From: a virus
IMG/VR virus record: IMGVR_UViG_3300047157_000063
Span: 7,676-71,675 of that record
DNA: 64,000 nucleotides
Strand: one strand, 5' to 3'
Shown here one piece after another: positions 7,606-63,700 of this stretch (position 1 is the stretch's first letter; each line of letters begins with the position of its first letter). The notes beneath the pieces were generated by a model, which was given only the letters and a program-made list of their open reading frames with translations, had not been told where the DNA came from and did no database searches. The position numbers were made by a program, and so were the translations under genes.

Positions 7606-8718
7606 TTAGTGTTTTATTATCTTAGACTTACCTCTCATAACTTGAGTAAGCTCTTCTAATTTTAAATTCGATAATCTTAGTTTAGCTGTTCTAACAGCTG
7701 CAAATCTTTCTTTTTTAAATCTAGCTACTAGATACTCTTGAACCCCTGCTCTTGTTGCTAATATTCCATGAGCAATCCATTTGTACATTGCTTCTTCAGC
7801 AAATTTATGTACTATCATTTCTTCTTCAGTACCTAAACCATCACTTATATACTTAAGTGTAATTGTTTTGCCAGATAAATCTGAGCTAAAGTTTATAGTA
7901 CCTTGTAATGGGTCTATATAATAAACACCGTTACCATGAGCTCTTTCCGGTTCTAATCCATATCTTCTTCCTCCAGCTAAAGTTTCATCTACACCATTAG
8001 AATCAGAGTTAGCATCTGTTTGACCTGTTGCGTCTTGAAAAGATTGCCATGTGTCTGAATCAGAAGCTGTGTTTAAAGATCCATCTGAAGAGTATAGATA
8101 ATCGTAATTATCATCTTGTAATATAGCTTGTGGATTACTAGTTTGTCTAGCTGGTAGTATTATTCTTTCAATACCACTAATATCTGTCCATGTTATTTTT
8201 ACATAGTTAACATAGTCATGTGGTAGTTTCATTTTTAACGATAATCCTAATTCTATTTCTTGTGATTTTTCAGACCTAAAAGTATCGTAGCTTAATTCTT
8301 GTATTGCTCTTTGAGCGTGGAAAGCTATATCTGCTCTTCTTACTTTAGGAATTATTTTATCTTGACCAACGTAACCAATTATAAAGTTATTTATAATCGT
8401 TGTTAGGTTTATAAATTGATAATTACCTAAACTTGGACTTAACAATGTTACAACTATAGACGTGTTGTTTGCTGGAAAGTTACCAGAAGTGAATGTTATT
8501 TGAAACGTAGTACCGTCGTAGTTAAAATGATTACCCGCGATTTGATTTGCTCCGTCAACAGTAACATTAAACTCACCAGCACTTGTAGGCATTGTAACAT
8601 TTGACGTTGATCCAATTTGATTATTTGGGAACGTAAGTGTAAAAGGACCCGCGCTATTGCTTCCTACAAAACTTTGAGAGCCGTAGTATTGTTGTTGTGT
8701 TCCTGTGAATAGTGGCAT
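7606..8718 (-). CDS. Tail ring / head-tail connector protein
   Basis: 370 aa with FHAQRAIQELSYD, LPHDYVNYVKITW and ITLKYISDG motifs; lies between capsid and tail-stabilization genes. Confidence 0.7.
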   Translation of the reverse strand: MPLFTGTQQQYYGSQSFVGSNSAGPFTLTFPNNQIGSTSNVTMPTSAGEFNVTVDGANQIAGNHFNYDGTTFQITFTSGNFPANNTSIVVTLLSPSLGNYQFINLTTIINNFIIGYVGQDKIIPKVRRADIAFHAQRAIQELSYDTFRSEKSQEIELGLSLKMKLPHDYVNYVKITWTDISGIERIILPARQTSNPQAILQDDNYDYLYSSDGSLNTASDSDTWQSFQDATGQTDANSDSNGVDETLAGGRRYGLEPERAHGNGVYYIDPLQGTINFSSDLSGKTITLKYISDGLGTEEEMIVHKFAEEAMYKWIAHGILATRAGVQEYLVARFKKERFAAVRTAKLRLSNLKLEELTQVMRGKSKIIKH

Positions 8719-28215: not shown

Positions 28216-29400
28216 TTATAAATTAAATCTGTTTTTGTATGCGTTGTAATTTTGTTTTATTTCGCTAGCAGTTAACACTCTATCATGTATTTTTACTACA
28301 GGTATATCACCATACAGTTGCCTACCATCTCCCTGTCCTATTGTAACTGTACTTGTATTATTATAAATAGTACCGCTATTGCTTGTACTAGTTTGTGTTG
28401 GTGTTCCGTTTTGATAAAATATACTTTCACCGGGTTTTCTCGTGTAAACTAAGTGGTAGTATTTATTAGAGGTCATCGTATTACCTGTGACTGTATTAAC
28501 ATGCGTGGTTGATGAGGTATTACCCGTGCTAAAAGTTCCATAAGGTACACTACTATCACTAATACGAATACCGTAAACAGCACCACCGCTGTAAGCTCCG
28601 TCTTTTTGAACTACTACATGATAACCATTACCATCAATAGGAGCTCCGTTTATCTTAACAACAGCTTCCACAGTTACATCAGCTACTTTGTTCCAACTAC
28701 TAGCAGGTAGTTGTATTTCATCATTTGTACCATCAAACGTTGGTTGACCGTTTGAATCAAAAGAAACGTTGGCTAAACTTACGTCTGTTGTTCTTCTTAA
28801 ATCTATTAAACTAGTAGTGTTTGATCTAGATCCGTTTACAAAAGGTGTGTGATCATTTTGTTTTTCTATTTGAGGCATTGTAACATCCCAAGAGCTTGAA
28901 TCACCATTTGCTTGACTACCACCGTAAGATATTAGATAAAACATTGTTGATGTAGATGTTACATTAACGGTTTTTGATACACGCTGCCACTCACCTATTA
29001 TTGACTTGTCTAGCGTAGTAGCTGTATCTGAACCCCCATAACTACTTACATAAACCGCCGCGCCATTATTATTGCTTGCTCCACCTCTATATCTAAACCA
29101 AGCAGAATAAGTATATGTTCCTGTGGTACCTACATTAAAAGCAGCATACATTCCGTTCCATGACGTTCTGTTATTTATTTTCATACCGAGAGTTCCAAAT
29201 TCAGTTGTAAATGCACCGTCATTTCCATTACTATAACTAGTCCAATTGTTTAGATCACTATTTGCAAAATTTATTAAATTTGTTGTTGGTTTACCTTGGT
29301 AAAATCTTGTTGATGTATTTTTGTCAGCAACACCATAACCAGTATCGTAACCCCACACTAAACCATCTGTTATTATATTTAATCCCCTTGTTATTCCCAT
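28216..29400 (-). CDS. LamG/concanavalin A-like lectin domain adhesin (paralogue of 25931-27172)
   Basis: Shares GYDTGYGVA...TRFY, QIEK...TPFVNG.RS and GDIPVVK..DR.LTA.EIK.N blocks with 25931-27172. Confidence 0.75.
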   Translation of the reverse strand: MGITRGLNIITDGLVWGYDTGYGVADKNTSTRFYQGKPTTNLINFANSDLNNWTSYSNGNDGAFTTEFGTLGMKINNRTSWNGMYAAFNVGTTGTYTYSAWFRYRGGASNNNGAAVYVSSYGGSDTATTLDKSIIGEWQRVSKTVNVTSTSTMFYLISYGGSQANGDSSSWDVTMPQIEKQNDHTPFVNGSRSNTTSLIDLRRTTDVSLANVSFDSNGQPTFDGTNDEIQLPASSWNKVADVTVEAVVKINGAPIDGNGYHVVVQKDGAYSGGAVYGIRISDSSVPYGTFSTGNTSSTTHVNTVTGNTMTSNKYYHLVYTRKPGESIFYQNGTPTQTSTSNSGTIYNNTSTVTIGQGDGRQLYGDIPVVKIHDRVLTASEIKQNYNAYKNRFNL

Positions 29401-37825: not shown

Positions 37826-38079
37826 TCTACTAAAACAACGTTACCAATTGATATAACATGATACATATTACCGTTCCAAGTTATACCATGCCCATTGTTT
37901 TTGTCATAATAGATAATATCACCATCTTGTATGCACTCTACTTTATGTCCAGCACTGATGACTCTAGCTTTTAGATACCTATTGTCACTATCTAACTTTT
38001 CTGTTATTTCTAAACCTGCTATTTTTTGCGGTTTTTCTTTAATTTTTTCTATTACGATGTTATAATTAATTGCTTTCAT
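37822..38079 (-). CDS. groES: Co-chaperonin GroES
   Basis: [11 protein letters not shown]...AGLEI...ARVISAG...IQDGDIIYY; adjacent to groEL. Confidence 0.8.
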   Translation of the reverse strand: MKAINYNIVIEKIKEKPQKIAGLEITEKLDSDNRYLKARVISAGHKVECIQDGDIIYYDKNNGHGITWNGNMYHVISIGNVVLVE

Positions 38080-39637
38080 TGACTCTCACGTTATTAATTA
38101 CACAATCTGCAGAAATTATTGTAGAAACCACACTAACTGCGTTCTTTAGTGCCGTTTTTGTTACCAAAACCGGGTCAATTATACCGGTTTCTACCATATT
38201 TACGTATTTTCCATTCGTTACATCTATTCCGTAACCTTTGGTTATACCTGTTTTCTTAGTATTCTCGAGTCCAGCGTTGTCTAATATAGTATTAAATGGT
38301 GATAATATAGATTTTAACAATATTTCTTCACCTACATTGCTAGGTTCGATGTTTTTTGATGCGTCAAACAACGCAACGCCTCCGCCAGGTACAATTCCTT
38401 CTTGTAAAGCTGCTTTTACTGCATATATAGAGTCTTCAACTCTGTCTTTCTTCTCTTTTAGCTCTACTTTTGAGTCAGCACCAACCTTTATAACGCCTAC
38501 AGAGCCAGAAAGCATAGCTAATCTTTCCTGTAGTTTCTTTTTAAAGTAAGGTTTTGTCTCTTTTTTAATGCTTTTCTTTACGTTTTTTATCCTTTCCTGT
38601 AAATCCTCGTTTACAAAACCAGTTGTAAGGACTGTAGTTCTGCTATCTGTCACAGATTTGACTACTTCACCCAAACAATCTGGCTGGATCAGATCTAAAT
38701 CGTCTCCAAGCTCTTCATTTACTACTTTAGCACCAGTTAAAAAGGCTAAATCATCAATAGCATCTTTCTTACTAGTTGCAAAACCAGGTGTGTCAATAAT
38801 ATTTACCTTAATATTACCTTTAACCTTGTTCATTAATAGTGCTGATTTGACCTGCTCGTCTACTTCAGCTACAATAAGTAGTGATCTTTTATTTTTAAGT
38901 ACATGTTCTAATATACTTTGTATCTTTCTTATGTTAGGTATAGGTGAAGATACGATCAAAACTAGCGGGTTTTCTAAAACACATCGCTGTTTGTCTTTGT
39001 CAGTTATAAAATATTGTGATGTTATACCTGAATCTATTTGAACTCCATCTACTATTTCTGCATAAGTTCTGTCATCTTCTGATTCTTCCATCAAAACTAC
39101 ACCATCTTTACCTACTTTATCATAAGCATCAGCAATTATATCGCCTAACTCCTTGTCATTGTTACAGCTTATTGATGAAACACTCTGTAACATATTGCCA
39201 GATACTGGCGTGGCGTGTTCTGAAAGGTATTTATTAACCTTTTCACTTGCTGATTTAATTCCATTTTTAATATCTCTTGTAGAATGATCTTTATATTCTG
39301 GATCATTAACTAGTTTTAAAAGTGATTGAGCAAGGACGGTAGCTGTAGTAGTACCGTCACCTGCTTCTTTCACCGTATTGCTGGCCGCTTCCTTTATTAA
39401 AGTTGCACCTATGTTTTCAACCGGATCGTGTAAGACTACAGATTCTGCTACTGTAACACCGTCTTTTGTGATAATCGGTTTACCCATTGCATCTTCGTAA
39501 ATAACACATTTACCAGACGCGCCTAATGTAGACTTAACAGCTTTCGCTAATTTATCTACACCAGCAATGATTTGACTCTTTGCGTCGTTACCAAAATGTA
39601 ATTCTTTTACATAACGACTAGGATTATTGTATTCCAT
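38066..39637 (-). CDS. groEL: Chaperonin GroEL
   Basis: [38 protein letters not shown] and [19 protein letters not shown]; no GGM tail. Confidence 0.97.
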
Positions 39638-41112: not shown

Positions 41113-41190
41113 ACTTGTTTCTATAAGTATAAAAATGCGAACAAGTAATTGAGTAAATGGTTTCTGTGAGTTCGATTCTCACCTACTCAT
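41113..41190 (+). ncRNA. Structured RNA with a tRNA T-arm minihelix
   Basis: Hairpin ACTTGTT/AACAAGT (41113-41146), then TGAGTA...GTGAG-TTCGATT-CTCAC-C-TACTCA: acceptor-like stem plus a perfect T-arm, with no D or anticodon arm. Confidence 0.5.
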
Positions 41191-42427: not shown

Positions 42428-43253
42428 ATAATATGACATGATTATCCTTACACGTGGAGACAAGAACAGACAAATGCTTTGAAGACTCGTTTCGCAAGAG
42501 CTCTACTAGTCGAGCACAATATAAAAGAAGTTACCACACAAAGACAAGCTATAAACGGCACAAGTGAGTTCGAGTTTCCTGTATCTGCTAGAAATTACTC
42601 ATGCAAATGGTGCTAAGTTCATTGCTTCACCTGATAGAAGACTAAGATTAGCTTGTTTCAAGTCGGGTTATGTAAGAAATCAAAACTCTTGCTCATCTAA
42701 CTATCAACTTAAATAAACACTTACAAGCAAGAATGTTAGGTACCACGTTCTTCGACAATGACAAAGGTGGCTTGTATACTAGCACAAAAGAATATATTTC
42801 TACACGCAAGACTAATTAATTACAGTGAGCTTGACAAGATTAAACTACATGTTAGAACTTTTACTTAAAGAAACTATTTAAACAGATAATGGAAAATAAA
42901 TTATAAGAAATTGTACTTAGATCACCACGATTGTACATTAGAATCTGAATGGACACAGGTGGTTATGATTTTGAAATGAGTACTGAGTATGCACCGCTGA
43001 TAGTTATGATGTATACTTATGCAGATACGCAGGTGAATCAACTAGATATATGCGAGAACATATACTACTATTCTCATGATTTAGAAGATATACTCATGGA
43101 AAAAATAGAAGAATGCGACAAAGTATATTGTGACGAGGGTATTGAAGATGAACTTACACATTGAGTGGGAACAAATATGTGAAGAAAATGGTTTAATCGA
43201 GTGGGATGATGACAACGAAGAATATCAAGTAGTCGGTGAAGATGAAGAATAAC

Positions 43254-43284
43254 ACAAACCAAATACGAATTAATTTGGATAATA
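43254..43284 (+). promoter_or_regulatory. Phage-specific early promoter motif, copy 4
   Basis: ACA-aacc-AAATACGAA-ttaatt-TGGATAATA; ATG at 43292. Confidence 0.8.
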
Positions 43285-43291
43285 TAATTGT

Positions 43292-43513
43292 ATGACAACA
43301 AAATGTAAATGTAAAAATATAATACCTCCGCAGCGGTTGGCACTAGGCTATACCTCTTGCGTCGAATGCAGTACCGTACAAGCTTACGGTTGTATTAACA
43401 TCACCTACCACAAAACCGGTAATACTATCCAGATTATGCCGAAGGATCAGGCGAAACGTATACGCAAGCTAACCGCTAGACGAGGCTATGGAACAATGTT
43501 AAGAAATATATAA
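43292..43513 (+). CDS. C4 zinc-finger protein, DksA/TraR-finger-like
   Basis: CKCKNIIPPQRLALGYTSCVECS resembles the C..C...IP..RL......CV.C finger of DksA/TraR. Confidence 0.6.
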   Translation: MTTKCKCKNIIPPQRLALGYTSCVECSTVQAYGCINITYHKTGNTIQIMPKDQAKRIRKLTARRGYGTMLRNI

Positions 43514-43515
43514 CT

Positions 43516-43728
43516 ATGAGTGATTCAGTAAAAGCATGGCACGAAATGCAAGAAGAAAATAAAATATCTATATCCGTAGATAAAGATTTAATACTAGTAA
43601 ACAAACTACTAGCATTGAGTAATGAGCAAAAATTACTAGACATAGATCAAGCTTTAAAAGAGTATGAAGGTAATGTTATAGATAAATGGCAAGTTATTAA
43701 TAGAATAGAAGAAATAATGTCACGTTGA
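43516..43728 (+). CDS. Early hypothetical protein
   Basis: 70-aa ORF MSDSVKAWHEMQEE... Confidence 0.55.
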   Translation: MSDSVKAWHEMQEENKISISVDKDLILVNKLLALSNEQKLLDIDQALKEYEGNVIDKWQVINRIEEIMSR

Positions 43729-43739
43729 GGCGTGATAAT

Positions 43740-43846
43740 GGTGGCGGCATACTGGTCACGTTAGCGGTAAATCCTACTATGGTACGCAAAACAGAAAGAG
43801 CGGATAAATGATAATACTAGTTAGCTACCAGTCCGCAACTGCTACC
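43740..43846 (+). ncRNA. Putative structured ncRNA immediately upstream of the tmRNA-like RNA
   Basis: Terminal stems GGTGGCGG/CTGCTACC and ACTGGT/ACCAGT enclose an A-rich interior; GC-richer than the flanks. Confidence 0.45.
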
Positions 43847-43849
43847 TAT

Positions 43850-43970
43850 GGGCGTGAAATGGTATGGTCACCTAACATTAAATCGAGGTCTTGGCTTCAA
43901 GCTTGTATCAGTTGTACAAAGCCACTCGTAGTGACAGTGATAAACGCAGGTTCGATTCCTGCCACGTCCA
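43850..43970 (+). ncRNA. Minimal tmRNA-like (tRNA-Ala-like domain) RNA
   Basis: Acceptor GGGCGTG/CACGTCC with G3:U70 and discriminator A; stemless D-loop AAATGGTATG; T-arm GCAGG-TTCGATT-CCTGC; long irregular hairpin in place of the anticodon arm. Confidence 0.7.
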
Positions 43971-43974
43971 CAAT

Positions 43975-44005
43975 ACAAACCAAATACGAATGTAGTTGGA
44001 TAATA
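43975..44005 (+). promoter_or_regulatory. Phage-specific early promoter motif, copy 5
   Basis: ACA-aacc-AAATACGAA-tgtagt-TGGATAATA; ATG at 44022. Confidence 0.8.
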
Positions 44006-44021
44006 TAATTAAATAATAAAT

Positions 44022-44258
44022 ATGACAAAAATCAAGACCGTCTACGACAGATTACTGCCCGACGTTAAAACAAGTTTGCAGGCTAGTGCTAGAAAGTATG
44101 ACTCTGCTAAAAGACTTAAGTATACTCTTATGTCTAAAATGATGTGGAATGAATTAACTATTGACGAGATGAAAGACTTGTTTACTTACGGTGATATAAC
44201 AAGCTATAAACTAGAATGCTGGAGCTTTATGTATGGTGATAATATACTTACGAAATGA
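44022..44258 (+). CDS. Early hypothetical protein
   Basis: 78-aa ORF after motif copy 5. Confidence 0.6.
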   Translation: MTKIKTVYDRLLPDVKTSLQASARKYDSAKRLKYTLMSKMMWNELTIDEMKDLFTYGDITSYKLECWSFMYGDNILTK

Positions 44259-44531: not shown

Positions 44532-44605
44532 GGCGGGATAGAGCAGCTGGTCAGCTCGCAAGGCTCATAACCTTGAGGTCGATGGTTCGAATCCATCTCC
44601 CGCAA
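44532..44605 (+). tRNA. tRNA-Met(CAT), probably initiator
   Basis: Cloverleaf: acceptor GGCGGGA/TCCCGCA with a 1:72 mismatch, D-arm GAGC/GCTC, anticodon arm CAAGG-CTCATAA-CCTTG, T-arm GATGG-TTCGAAT-CCATC; CCA not encoded. Confidence 0.92.
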
Positions 44606-44622
44606 CTAAAAATAATAATAAT

Positions 44623-60792: not shown

Positions 60793-63700
60793 TTACTTTT
60801 TTTTAACCTTAAAGCTTGATTCTTTTTTAAATCCTTGTTCTTCACCAAATTTAGCTTCTTTACCAAAGTTTGCTTTTATAAACTTTTCTATAACATTACC
60901 AGTGTCACTTTCTAATTGCCATTTTTGCCAACCAAGAGATAAAGCTATTCTTTTCCACATCTCATTATCTTCGTCCATAGCATCAGCTATGTTCTGATAT
61001 TTTATAAACGCTCTGTCTAAAGGAACGTTTGTGAAAGCTGAAACAACTTGACCACCAGCTAGATAAGCAGGGTTTGTCGGATCTAGTATTGACTTGCTTT
61101 TTATTTCGTCCATGTCATAATCTAATATTTTACCCGCACCTCTTAGTTTAGAAACTTTAGAATCTACAGGTGGAGATATATCCAACAACTTCAATGCTGA
61201 ATCAGCATATTTAGGTCTGTCTTTTTCGGATTGCTTCTTAAGATCTAATACCATATTTTTCATAGTGTCTATCGCGGCACCTTGCCAACCCATACCTCTT
61301 AGTATAGAACCTATCATTCCACTAGCTAGCATTGTAGTATCACTTTGTATACCTTCTTCCTCATCAAAAGCATCTTTAAACAGCGCTGATTGCAAAGCGT
61401 TGAATATAAAGTTTTGCACCATACCGTAGTAAGCTATCTTAGATACATTAGCTCTCCAGTCTCCACGTCCATTTTTTAAATCACTAGCAGCTCTTTGCAT
61501 TATACGAGCATATTGAGAAGGTGTGTTAGCAAAAGCTAAAACAACTCTACCTATATTACTAGCTTGCTGCATTGATATTCTATCAACTCTACTAGACTGT
61601 TGTGACTCTTCTGTTATTTCTCTAAACTCATCAAAAGCTTTTTGTTTTGCCTCTGCTTCACTAAATCCTTTTTTCTTGTATGTATTTATTCTATTTCTAT
61701 AAAAAGTAGCACCACCAGAAGCAATAGCGTGACTATCTGCAGCTCTTGTTAAAACAAAACCTTTATTTAATAAATAAGATATAGCTCCTTGTACTCCACT
61801 TTCTTTAGCGGCATCAGCTATTTCAGACTCGTTAACATTGATTTGATTACCACCTCTTCTTTCAACCATAAAATCAGACATTATTAATTCTGCATAATCT
61901 TTCCAATATTGTTTTTGATTTGCAAAAGCTTTAGCCATCATTAACGGGTTATTGTCATGCCAGTTTGTATAATTTATAGTTGATATAGTTTGAAGAACAG
62001 CTGATCTAGTATTTAAAAACATTATGGCACCAACAGAACTATTTACCCAATCTAATGCTTTACCTTCCATCTCACCCATTTTCCCAGACAGCATAAGATT
62101 TCTGTTTCTACCTGTCTTCATTCTTTTCAGCATGTTTTCCATAGCTGATCTCCAGTTAGAACCTAATGCAGCTTCCATTTTATTTAGGTTTTCAGGGCTA
62201 AATATCATATCAGAGTTTGTTTGCCACTCTTGAAGGTGTTTAGCTCTACTTACCTTATTTAAATTCTCGTATAAATCAGTTGTTATTGTTCCTGCTAACC
62301 AACTCTTTTTTGGAGCCATATAACCATCTCCTCTGTTTAAATCAATAAGTTGTTGTGAAAATCTTTTTAAAGCTGGACTTTTTTCCACGTAATCTGTTAA
62401 TGATTTTAGATCAGCAGCTGATAAATCAGGAACCTCCATACCTTGTTTTTTCCAAGTATAAACTCTTAAAGCTTGCTCTATAGTGTAAGGTTCTCCAGGT
62501 ACTTTTTTAGTGAGATCTTTAGGTATACCAGCTTTGATCAATTCTTTCTTCATAGCCTTGAAATCATTTATCATAGCCATTCTTTGAGCTGACAAAGCAT
62601 TGTTACCTCTAGCAAAAGTTTTTATTAATTTGTCTTTAAAAAACTGCATGTCAGCATCTCCTTGTTTTCCTTTACCTAAAAGTCTATATAACAAACCTTC
62701 AAAATCCTGAGCAGAAGAAGCCATCATCTTTCTTTTACCAGAATCCTTGCCCATAACAGCAGCCTTGCTTCTTGAATATGTTTTTTCTTTACCTATGCCA
62801 AACTTACGCTCTATCATTTCGTTAACTTTAACACTCATGTCTTTTGACTGCAAAGCTAATTGCACCTCACCCTTCATATCAATAACGTTAAGAACATCAC
62901 TAACTGCTTTAACATTTTTATAAGCGTCGTCAGCAAAGTAGAAGTCATTGTAACCTTTGGATGCTTTGTCTAATATCCAAAGCGCTTTAGCTTGAGGACT
63001 ACCATTTTCTAAGCCAGTTATATTTTTCAATGGTATCTCCAAACCTATACCTTTTAAAAACTTATGTATAGCATTTGCTGAGGCTTGTGGTCTTGCTGTT
63101 AAGACAAATATATCTTTACTACCAAATTTCCCTTGTCTTTTTAAAGCTAGATCAGCTAGCGGTCCTTTTTTACCATCAATAACTTTGTTAAACTCTGTGA
63201 AATCAAACTTAGCGCCTTTAGCTTCTAGAGCTTCTGATTGTTTAGCGAATTCTGTAGCGTTTATTTTTCCTTTTTTACCGTTGGGTAAAGTATAAAGCAC
63301 CATCGAGTTAGACTTAGCAAGGGTGTCATCAAAATCAAAAACACTTATACCTTTAGCTTTTTTAGACATCTTAGCTAGCCTTAACGCTTCTTCTATTTGA
63401 TTTAATTTTTTTATTATTTCTGGATTAGACAATGTTTTAGATTGAGCAGCTGAACCAGGAACAACTTTGTCAAGCCGTTTTAATAAATTACTTTTTATTT
63501 TGTTTATTGATTCTAAACTTTGTTTAACACCAACAAGGTCTTCTGTTATCTCTTTCGCTGTTTTACCTGTTTTTATATCTAAAGTTGTTGCTTGTATAAT
63601 AGCATCAACCATGTAGTTAGCTTTTGCTGATAAGCTTGTGTTGTAACCTTTAATAAAACCTGTGTTACCTCCCATTTCAGGAGAATCAGCTTCACCTTGT

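Follow-up and report, generated by a model that had tools for sequence, protein, structure and literature searches.

Comparative sequence evidence for a family of CDS-less tmRNA homologues with exchangeable hairpin payloads in marine phages

Locus and anatomy of the element

The stretch of DNA analyzed in this work (the window) comprises 64,000 nucleotides (nt) of the virus record IMGVR_UViG_3300047157_000063, positions 7,676 to 71,675. On its + strand it carries a 121-nt element (43850-43970) that an initial annotation, made from the sequence alone, had proposed to be a miniature transfer-messenger RNA (tmRNA), namely, an alanine-type tRNA-like domain (TLD) devoid of an mRNA-like domain. The left arm of the phage genome encodes, on the minus strand, the large terminase, virion proteins, and GroEL, and its right arm holds, on the plus strand, small open reading frames (ORFs), the element, a tRNA-Met, a DNA ligase, and a primase/helicase, a layout that suggests early expression of the element. 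The latter lies in a 293-nt stretch (43729-44021) separating two + strand ORFs and has a G+C content of 47%, compared to 34% for the window. The features of the locus are compiled in Table 1.

Table 1. Features of the element, of the domain preceding it, and of neighboring genes (window coordinates)
Feature	Position	Strand	Remarks
Source record			IMG/VR virus record of 71.7 kb with a completeness rating of 100%; contains the window
Acceptor 5' strand GGGCGTG	43850-43856	+	G3 at 43852; paired in 76/76 and 49/49 distinct relatives
Stemless D-loop AAATGGTATG with GG	43857-43866	+	Alignable with the D-loop in the Rfam tmRNA consensus (relative L046)
Closing helix 5' strand GTCAC	43867-43871	+	tmRNA helix-2 position; helix kept with unrelated sequences across the family
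Payload, irregular hairpin, 65 nt	43872-43936	+	Unpaired stretches CTAACAnTAAAT, TAGTGACA are conserved
Closing helix 3' strand GTGAT	43937-43941	+	From fold and comparison
Linker AAAC	43942-43945	+	AAC in most relatives
T-arm GCAGG-TTCGATT-CCTGC	43946-43962	+	From sequence and covariation
Acceptor 3' strand CACGTCC	43963-43969	+	U70 at 43967; 7 bp with 43850-43856
Discriminator A73	43970	+	From sequence
Pseudoknotted RNA domain	43740-43846	+	Ends 3 nt before the element; 38 distinct relatives
Helix Pa, long-range closing stem	43740-43747 with 43839-43846	+	Kept with different sequences
Helix Pb	43752-43756 with 43827-43831	+	Covaries in 20/20 parsed
Helix Pd	43800-43804 with 43832-43836	+	Crosses Pb, giving a pseudoknot; kept with different sequences
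Variable hairpin slot of upstream domain	43765-43786	+	From comparison
78-aa ORF, first after the element	44022-44258	+	Family immediately follows the element in 37 other loci
tRNA-Met (CAT)	44532-44606	+	ARAGORN, Rfam; about 560 nt downstream of the element
Phage GroEL	38066-39637	-	PHROG 5725, E 5e-137

The anatomy given in the initial annotation (acceptor stem, G3:U70, A73, D-loop, helix, hairpin, T-arm, and total length) is correct in every detail in the sequence, in which the third of the seven acceptor pairs, 3:70, is G:U. The minimum free energy fold (-36.4 kcal/mol, z -2.49) reproduces the proposed structure exactly, irregular interior hairpin included; since 2 of 200 shuffled sequences fold equally well, folding energy by itself is weak evidence, and the proof is comparative. 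The pairing GTCAC/GTGAT is preferred over the alternative GTCAC/GTGAC on the evidence of one relative (L038), which has TATCAC/GTGATA. The family consensus of the D-loop is AAATGGTTAG. The terminal CCA is not encoded: A73 is followed by CAA in the window and by CTA in most relatives, and the cta trailer of the family is also that of the neighboring phage tRNA-Met.

Relation to tmRNA and tRNA

On the window, ARAGORN called the tRNA-Met and not the element, and Rfam at gathering score returned the same tRNA only, with the element called neither as tmRNA nor as tRNA; in E-value mode, the local stretch gave sub-threshold tmRNA fragments only. When the Rfam tmRNA model (RF00023) was aligned globally, however, the element was matched over model positions 1-374 with 33.7 bits (E 2e-13). 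This is the sole global tmRNA-model match in the 71.7-kb genome, and the phage's own tRNA-Met gave no match to this model at E<=10. Of the checks suggested in the initial annotation, those with ARAGORN and with Rfam at gathering score were thus negative, and the Rfam tmRNA model gave a sub-threshold global match, in which both ends are aligned as expected for a tmRNA-type TLD lacking the mRNA domain. In a 70-nt relative aligned to the tmRNA consensus, the strongly conserved positions of both ends are matched except for a D-loop position, the unencoded CCA, and two pairs with changes in both strands, namely, 4:69 and one in the T stem. The 326 interior positions of the model are reduced to 25 nt in this relative and to 65 nt in the window element. 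A subgroup with the acceptor GGGGGTG/CACCTCC and the D-loop GGTTTTGA is even nearer to the tmRNA ends of Bacteroidetes metagenome-assembled genomes (MAGs). Copies of the element found in three MAGs score 35-39 bits with the tmRNA model, compared to 142-174 bits for the real tmRNAs of these MAGs, whose acceptor sequences differ. The unencoded CCA is not decisive, since it was also observed in one of the two Bacteroidetes MAG tmRNAs for which the 3' end was read.

The proposed lack of an mRNA domain was borne out. There is no shared tag-like frame, and only 1 of 75 payloads has a frame ending in ..AA. ARAGORN identified no tmRNA or tag in the window or in the family loci scanned and called no family member as tRNA, and Rfam at gathering score detected tRNAs only in 16 family loci and 16 further relatives, with no riboswitch, ribozyme, GOLLD/ROOL, or tmRNA among them. 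The element possesses an end-closed acceptor with G3:U70, an A discriminator, and a T stem-loop combined with a stemless, reduced D-loop, the last being a tmRNA hallmark according to PMC3968760 (consulted in part). It has no mRNA-like domain (resume codon, tag frame, stop), none of the pseudoknots PK1-PK4, and no score at the gathering level; its interior is one 65-nt hairpin, and the only pseudoknot lies outside, upstream of the 5' end. It also lacks the D stem and the anticodon arm with its 7-nt loop that would be typical for a tRNA (RF00005). Its tmRNA-type ends, nearer to tmRNA than to tRNA, enclose a short non-coding interior, which is the layout of a TLD-only molecule. Taken together with the covariation reported below, these data identify the element, as judged from comparative sequence analysis, as a real and selected RNA gene, homologous to tmRNA and of the type without coding sequence (CDS-less, or TLD-only).

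A large family in viral and marine metagenome sequences

Relatives were gathered from viral (IMG/VR) and marine metagenome contigs; individual relatives are referred to by L numbers. Exact copies of the 3' 25-mer are present in 59 IMG/VR stretches, each of which has the matching 5' strand 43-124 nt upstream, yielding elements of 68-149 nt. The 5' 17-mer was found in 37 stretches, comprising 28 of the 25-mer set and 9 new ones with 1-3 changes in the 3' part. The marine metagenome collection adds at least 119 occurrences, so that the pooled family contains at least 148 distinct elements of 60-178 nt; further members extend the size span to 47-185 nt. The same tRNA-like head with changing inserts hence recurs in hundreds of related phage sequences. 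In 184 of the 190 listed 25-mer occurrences, the 5' half is at most 178 nt away; four of the others are cut by a contig end and two have a variant 5' strand. The element is thus neither a chance match nor a hidden full-length tmRNA or an assembly deletion, the objection that the initial annotation had itself raised, and there was also no full-length tmRNA in 16 element-less relatives described below. The smallest relative (L287:1676-1722) has 47 nt and consists of acceptor, a 15-nt connector, and T-arm, with neither closing helix nor payload; it scores 40.9 bits with the family covariance model R1.

Complete relatives have one or two copies. In G404 (the record behind L012/L017), the element is found at 379-485 and 63129-63235, inside a direct terminal repeat, and is thus present twice per virion DNA. 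In another two-copy relative, the second copy is a G3:C70 paralogue. Searches of GenBank phages with the locus (megablast/blastn) matched the tRNA-Met only, and a 30-nt query at E<=10 gave generic T-arm matches only, the best listed being 92.6% over 27 nt. There is no exact copy of the element in 50,697 GenBank phage records, and no cultured phage in this collection was shown to carry it. Among the one-per-species bacterial genomes scanned, the exact 25-mer is confined to phage-like contigs of three MAGs, and the literature searches retrieved no description of this marine phage family.

Covariation and the alanine identity elements

Seventy-six distinct members, chosen by the RNA's own sequence, were aligned (A1). 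All of them have a fully (100%) paired acceptor and T stem, and each of the 6 pairs of the closing helix varies on both sides. At a fixed register, pairing was observed for 75% of the cells of this helix, compared to 31-51% in slid controls. Covariation amounts to 0.216 versus 0.074 in shuffles, with 0 of 500 shuffles reaching the observed value, and pair 3:70 is G:U in 73 of the 76 distinct copies.

An RNA-independent sample of 80 loci was fetched by similarity of the neighboring DNA ligase (58-88% amino acid identity) and searched with the covariance model R1, built from A1. The element is present upstream of the ligase in 54 of these loci. Ten of the 26 loci without it have less than 2.1 kb of upstream sequence, and the other 16 contain tRNAs but no tmRNA at Rfam gathering score. 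For the 49 distinct copies, in an alignment (A3) that was fitted to R1 but in which the acceptor columns are nonetheless unambiguous, covariation is 0.467 versus 0.108. At pair 3:70, 47 copies have G:U and 2 have A:U, and the discriminator is A in 48 and T in 1, whereas the adjacent pair 4:69 is C-G in 37, A-U in 7, G-C in 3, U-A in 1, and U-G in 1. Pairs 5:68 and 6:67 show both-side changes in 2 copies each, and T-stem pairs 2-4 all covary (GGCGG/CCGCC, GACAG/CTGTC, and GAAGG/CCTTC). G3:U70 and the stems, whose lack of conservation would have spoken against the initial annotation, are thus conserved in both alignments. What is kept across the family is G3:U70, A73, the D-loop GG, and all but one of the seven positions of the T-loop; pair 4:69 and the T stem covary.

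G3:U70 and A73 are the identity elements of the alanyl-tRNA synthetase AlaRS (PMC3968760, in part). A wobble pair that is constant at 3:70, next to a pair 4:69 that takes all four Watson-Crick combinations as well as U-G, is the pattern expected under selection for alanyl-tRNA synthetase identity, and the alanine signature is accordingly under selection. The statement that the RNA can be alanylated has good evolutionary support, in that the identity elements are conserved while neighboring pairs covary.

The same data bear on the idea that the locus is a non-functional remnant, either left over from a decayed tRNA or tmRNA or copied, in the manner of an attP, from the end of a host tmRNA. The failure of ARAGORN and of Rfam at gathering score to call the element would fit such a remnant. 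Yet relatives with ligases of only 58-88% identity retain both halves, with covariation, and the exact 25-mer occurs in none of the scanned bacterial genomes other than in the phage-like contigs of the three MAGs, which makes decay barely credible. The attP variant was rejected in view of this restriction of the 25-mer to phage-like contigs and because no tyrosine integrase (PF00589) is encoded in the genome.

Payload slot

The at least 148 distinct elements hold at least 68 payload clusters that share no 18-nt match. An identical 107-nt element is found behind four different upstream flanks (L010, L012, L022, and L075), and one flank precedes versions of 69, 107, and 119 nt (L011, L010, and L028, respectively). 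Payloads may be nested, as in L026, which combines an L015-type hairpin with an L018-type insert, and in L059, in which L004 contains an L033-type insert. Payloads are also found beyond the TLD, as free hairpins closely upstream or downstream of it. The window payload is known in five distinct versions, of which three reside in TLDs (L001, which is the window, L039, and L038) and two are free-standing, upstream of a TLD in L029 and downstream of one in L049. These five versions have four different closing stems, a covarying inner stem (CGAG/CTCG, CGCG/CGCG, and CGAC/GTCG), and conserved unpaired stretches. The interior hairpin is thus not a spacer but one of at least 68 exchangeable payload types. 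Helix 2 of tmRNA imitates a long variable arm and protrudes from the ribosome (PMC3968760, in part), and a position outside the ribosome would explain the free length and sequence at this place and its use as a slot for exchangeable modules.

As a separate observation, some modules are built like Russian dolls, with shells CGAGTAGTAATGCGAGTG...CACTCAATAGTTATTACCC or GCGAATAAATAACA...AAATG whose tips carry different sub-modules. They were seen in TLDs, in the second tRNA-like scaffold described below, and free-standing; examples are L004/L025/L059/L046/L022/L062, L034/L042/L021, and the upstream regions of L003/L059/L098.

This diversity underlies the main rival explanation, according to which the TLD serves mainly as a scaffold for processing and stability. 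The effector would then be the hairpin, released and protected by this scaffold and acting, for instance, as a protein-binding RNA, a decoy, or a mimic in the phage-host arms race, and alanylation would be secondary or only a tRNA disguise toward nucleases and EF-Tu. This explanation is suggested by the number of unrelated payload clusters within a near-invariant frame, by the occurrence of the same payload with different flanks and of different payloads behind identical flanks, by modules that are nested, free-standing beside the TLD, or inserted in a second tRNA-like scaffold, and by the window payload, which keeps its unpaired sequence, with covarying stems, in four contexts. A mere scaffold, however, needs neither G3:U70 nor A73, yet both are kept while their neighbors covary; the 47-nt member has no hairpin, and in members of 68-70 nt the payload is down to about 19-25 nt. 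The arms are nearly identical (with identical stretches of 17 nt and 29 nt), and recombination between them would alone shuffle payloads, so that the shuffling may be a by-product. Nor was a target found beyond chance: the search for antisense targets of the payload in the phage genome gave one match of 11 nt, compared to 3.6 expected from shuffles, and nearly all matches of the whole non-coding stretch in 401 sampled Bacteroidota genomes fall on the T-arm, the others being few, isolated, and weak (E 0.003-0.009), with one inside the payload. No host-derived payload was detected in the 401 genomes searched. A scaffold role is consequently regarded as possible, though on the unlikely side; it is compatible with a role in trans-translation, and both can be true.

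Upstream pseudoknot domain and a second tRNA-like scaffold

The element is preceded by a pseudoknotted domain whose conserved single strands are CACGTTAG, CAAAACAGAAAG, and TAAATGAyAATACTAGTTArCT, and which matches no Rfam family. The folding energy of the 231-nt stretch comprising this domain and the TLD is no better than that of shuffles (z -0.06), and the support for the domain is hence covariation only. Other relatives have a hairpin domain of another kind, or a second tRNA-like scaffold, at this position. The latter has the acceptor AACTAG/CTAGTT, which has no G3:U70, and a variable insert, with the layout 5' AACTAGGTCAGG ... variable insert ... GGCTACCGACGGGTA-TGAGG-TTCGAAT-CCTCA-CTAGTT. 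Its 10 distinct copies are in L025, L036, L068, L091, L065, L012, L071, L028, L098, and L126; it is followed, in several loci, by the tmRNA-like element at a distance of about 4 nt, shares insert modules with this element, and received no ARAGORN call in the loci scanned. A further type of unusual tRNA was observed in unrelated, larger viral contigs (L087:1158-1227, L107:10229-10298, and L111:5766-5835, the last on the minus strand): it has 67-70 nt, an anticodon CAT, no D-arm, a stemless D-loop TGATATGGATTCG, and an AAC linker and T-arm as in the element.

The upstream domain raises the question of whether the element is part of a larger noncoding RNA of about 230 nt, in which the TLD would serve as a 3' cap recruiting tRNA enzymes or EF-Tu, much as some plant virus RNAs have 3' ends that combine an upstream pseudoknot domain with a tRNA-like structure. 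In 38 distinct relatives, 3-5 nt separate the end of the domain from G1, with three covarying helices, and the place is occupied by another structured domain or a second tRNA-like element in other relatives. As the upstream partner varies while the TLD is constant, independent modules of an array fit better, and a tRNA-like 5' end beside a single-stranded leader is a normal RNase P site; a composite RNA is thus improbable.

Neighboring genes

A tRNA-Met often neighbors the element in relatives, with a 74-75-nt tRNA-Met called by ARAGORN in 8 of 17 family loci. In some relatives, the element lies between tRNA-like genes and a tRNA-Met, and in L065, L091, and L006 it sits within tRNA arrays. No SmpB (PF01668) is encoded in the phage genome, so any SmpB partner must be that of the host. 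The first protein downstream of the element belongs to a family of which 36 sequences were aligned (26-77% identity). Its AlphaFold model is confident and helical (predicted local distance difference test score 89.8); there was no match to Pfam or PHROG families and none to the PDB with this model (best E 1.9), and a functional tie between this protein and the element is not established. An AT-rich conserved trailer (43971-44021, + strand; ATTACAAA..AATACGAATG..GGATAATATAAT) is also present in L029, L008, L005, L031, L004, and L051. It looks promoter-like for the next ORF; the consensus scan made no + strand call there, and the promoter and terminator scan detected nothing convincing beside the element on this strand. 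At 41166-41182 (+), an isolated T-arm-like 17-mer corresponds to tmRNA model positions 347-363 (12.3 bits).

The genomic context is relevant for another alternative, in which the element is a decoy or sponge for other proteins that recognize tRNA-Ala or acceptor ends (toxins, defense nucleases, or enzymes that use alanyl-tRNA) and has no role in trans-translation. The conserved parts, namely, the acceptor, the T-arm, and G3:U70, are compatible with such a function, and the element is placed among small ORFs of early type, which would often be the home of counter-defense genes. The similarity is, however, to the ends of tmRNA and not to tRNA-Ala, the stemless D-loop is of the tmRNA type, and no defense or toxin context was found among the neighboring ORFs, so that a decoy for such other targets appears hardly likely.

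Distribution and host

The 2-kb stretch around the element is present in sequencing runs of 13 studies, which comprise seawater and marine viral metagenomes, and a DNA run of a separate study covers 43306-43917 with no differences; the element is thus contained in independent assemblies. The matches in genome collections are to phage-like contigs in three MAGs, two of which are labelled Bacteroidetes, and the phage GroEL is about 40% identical to those of phages infecting various hosts, among them Flavobacterium, Bacteroides, and Cellulophaga.

Discussion

The initial annotation regarded the RNA as a possible decoy or tag-free rescuer, which is the standing hypothesis for TLD-only tmRNAs. In the reading favored here, the element is matured like a tRNA, charged with alanine, and competes with host tmRNA for SmpB and stalled ribosomes without tagging; this is plausible but tentative, and we would attach slightly less than even confidence to it. 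Transcription of the RNA would take place on the + strand, in the rightward block that contains small ORFs and replication genes, and tRNA-like excision would involve RNase P cleavage at G1, 3' trimming after A73, and, because CCA is not encoded, CCA addition. The host alanyl-tRNA synthetase would then charge it by means of G3:U70 and A73, and the Ala-TLD may engage host SmpB and EF-Tu, competing with the host tmRNA for SmpB and for stalled ribosomes. It could donate alanine but would offer no resume codon, tag, or stop codon. The net effect during infection would be that trans-translation tagging of the host is damped or that stalled ribosomes are handled in a tag-free manner instead. Processing, charging, binding of SmpB and EF-Tu, and the direction of the effect (inhibition or tag-free rescue) are inferred.

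Several points weigh against this reading. The score of 33.7 bits is below the Rfam tmRNA gathering cut-off of 47 bits, and two to three copies carry A3:U70 or G3:C70. The payload, and not the TLD, may be the effector, given that payloads are conserved, covarying RNAs that are also found outside the TLD and in a second tRNA-like scaffold, which is not of the alanine type. The element is also present, with 1-2 differences, in contigs from three metatranscriptome runs (43850-43971 in two of them, 43850-43951 in the third), yet these contigs carry the flanks of relative L039 and give no strand or ends, and DNA carry-over is possible, so that they are no proof of expression. The hints at the host point to Bacteroidota, on the basis of MAG binning and GroEL identity only. 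Finally, inhibition of the type seen for the RNA of Mycobacterium phage DS6A was reported not to need chargeability (PMC4131195, in part), and a pure SmpB sponge would thus not need a conserved G3:U70. The conservation of this pair points to a role for the charged form, which would favor ribosome entry over passive titration.

A further reading, which is rather unlikely, is that the tmRNA head acts as an alanine-chargeable delivery handle and that the helix-2 slot displays interchangeable RNA cassettes, which would be brought to SmpB, EF-Tu, or the ribosome or be shielded as tRNA look-alikes. If this were true, cassette turnover would reflect an arms race with host defenses, and the family would be a natural, modular RNA-display system made from parts of trans-translation.

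Interference with host ribosome rescue, or its replacement, may be a common phage strategy. The family is a natural mutational series that shows which TLD positions matter, and it supplies minimal RNAs (47-185 nt) to probe recognition by AlaRS, SmpB, and EF-Tu as well as the fate of the ribosome after binding of a message-less alanyl-TLD. Furthermore, the payload slot and the islands of structured RNA suggest that phages join tRNA-like frames with exchangeable modules, which, if confirmed, may be of interest for RNA engineering.

Comparison with known systems

The element resembles tRNA (RF00005) in its acceptor and T-arm, and one 70-nt relative scores barely above the tRNA cut-off (32 versus 29 bits); it also shares its T-arm and AAC linker with the D-armless tRNA(CAU) of other viral contigs. 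In contrast to tRNA, it has no D stem, anticodon loop, or anticodon. In the engineered tRNA scaffold for recombinant RNA, a tRNA-shaped frame carries a structured RNA at the position of the anticodon arm and lends it processing and stability, and murine gammaherpesvirus 68 has tRNA-like/pre-miRNA units. In both cases, the likeness is one of carrier mechanism only, with no homology, as they are not derived from tmRNA and show no selection for alanine identity.

Canonical tmRNA (RF00023) shares with the element the aligned ends, G3:U70, A73, the reduced D-loop with GG, the T-arm, and a helix at the helix-2 position. It differs by its mRNA-like domain, resume codon, tag, stop, and internal pseudoknots, all of which are missing in the element, whose score is below gathering. 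A full-length tmRNA is annotated in Cellulophaga phage Calle_1 (L137), with which the window phage shares about 40% GroEL identity; it scores only 21 bits with R1 and was rejected on this ground as a link to the marine family. By eye, only the 3' TLD half of this tmRNA (annotated at 43002-43361) was recognized, near 43281-43311, and the 5' acceptor strand was not found in the stretch read, so that it may be permuted or mis-bounded.

CDS-less tmRNAs are known from jakobid mitochondria and two Mallomonadaceae plastids; they consist of the TLD only, of about 65 bp, and are thought to act with SmpB though no tag can be added (PMC11915505, in part). These organellar RNAs are vertically inherited and have no variable payloads, whereas the marine element is viral and must use the SmpB of its host.

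The closest known system is the TLD-only tmRNA of DS6A, and this kind of molecule is thus already known. The DS6A tmRNA is listed as 'TLD only' (PMC4131195, in part; tmRNA Website Phage__Mycobacterium.9), and this CDS-less form is reported to inhibit the endogenous tmRNA in Escherichia coli (PMC4131195 and PMC11915505, in part). DS6A is the sole phage case named in the consulted parts of these two articles; database supplements may list more. By the same global method, its RNA was located at 28478-28560 of JN698994, with 83 nt and 43.2 bits with the tmRNA model, a sub-threshold match like the 33.7-39 bits of the marine family. Both are phage encoded and have an acceptor with G3:U70 and A73, a stemless D-loop, a closing helix with a short interior, and a T-arm, and both have no tag frame, no encoded CCA, and a cta trailer. 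They show no sequence identity past the generic tmRNA ends. The DS6A RNA is a single 83-nt molecule of an actinobacteriophage with a fixed 31-nt interior, whereas the marine family comprises at least 148 distinct sequences of 47-185 nt, whose payloads fall into at least 68 unrelated classes and which lie downstream of structured RNA domains. What is new is therefore the size of the family, the helix-2 slot with at least 68 hairpin payloads, some of which are also free-standing, and the covarying upstream pseudoknot domain. Tag-less tmRNA, so far represented by one mycobacteriophage and a few organelles, now includes a large, abundant, and strongly selected family of ocean phages.

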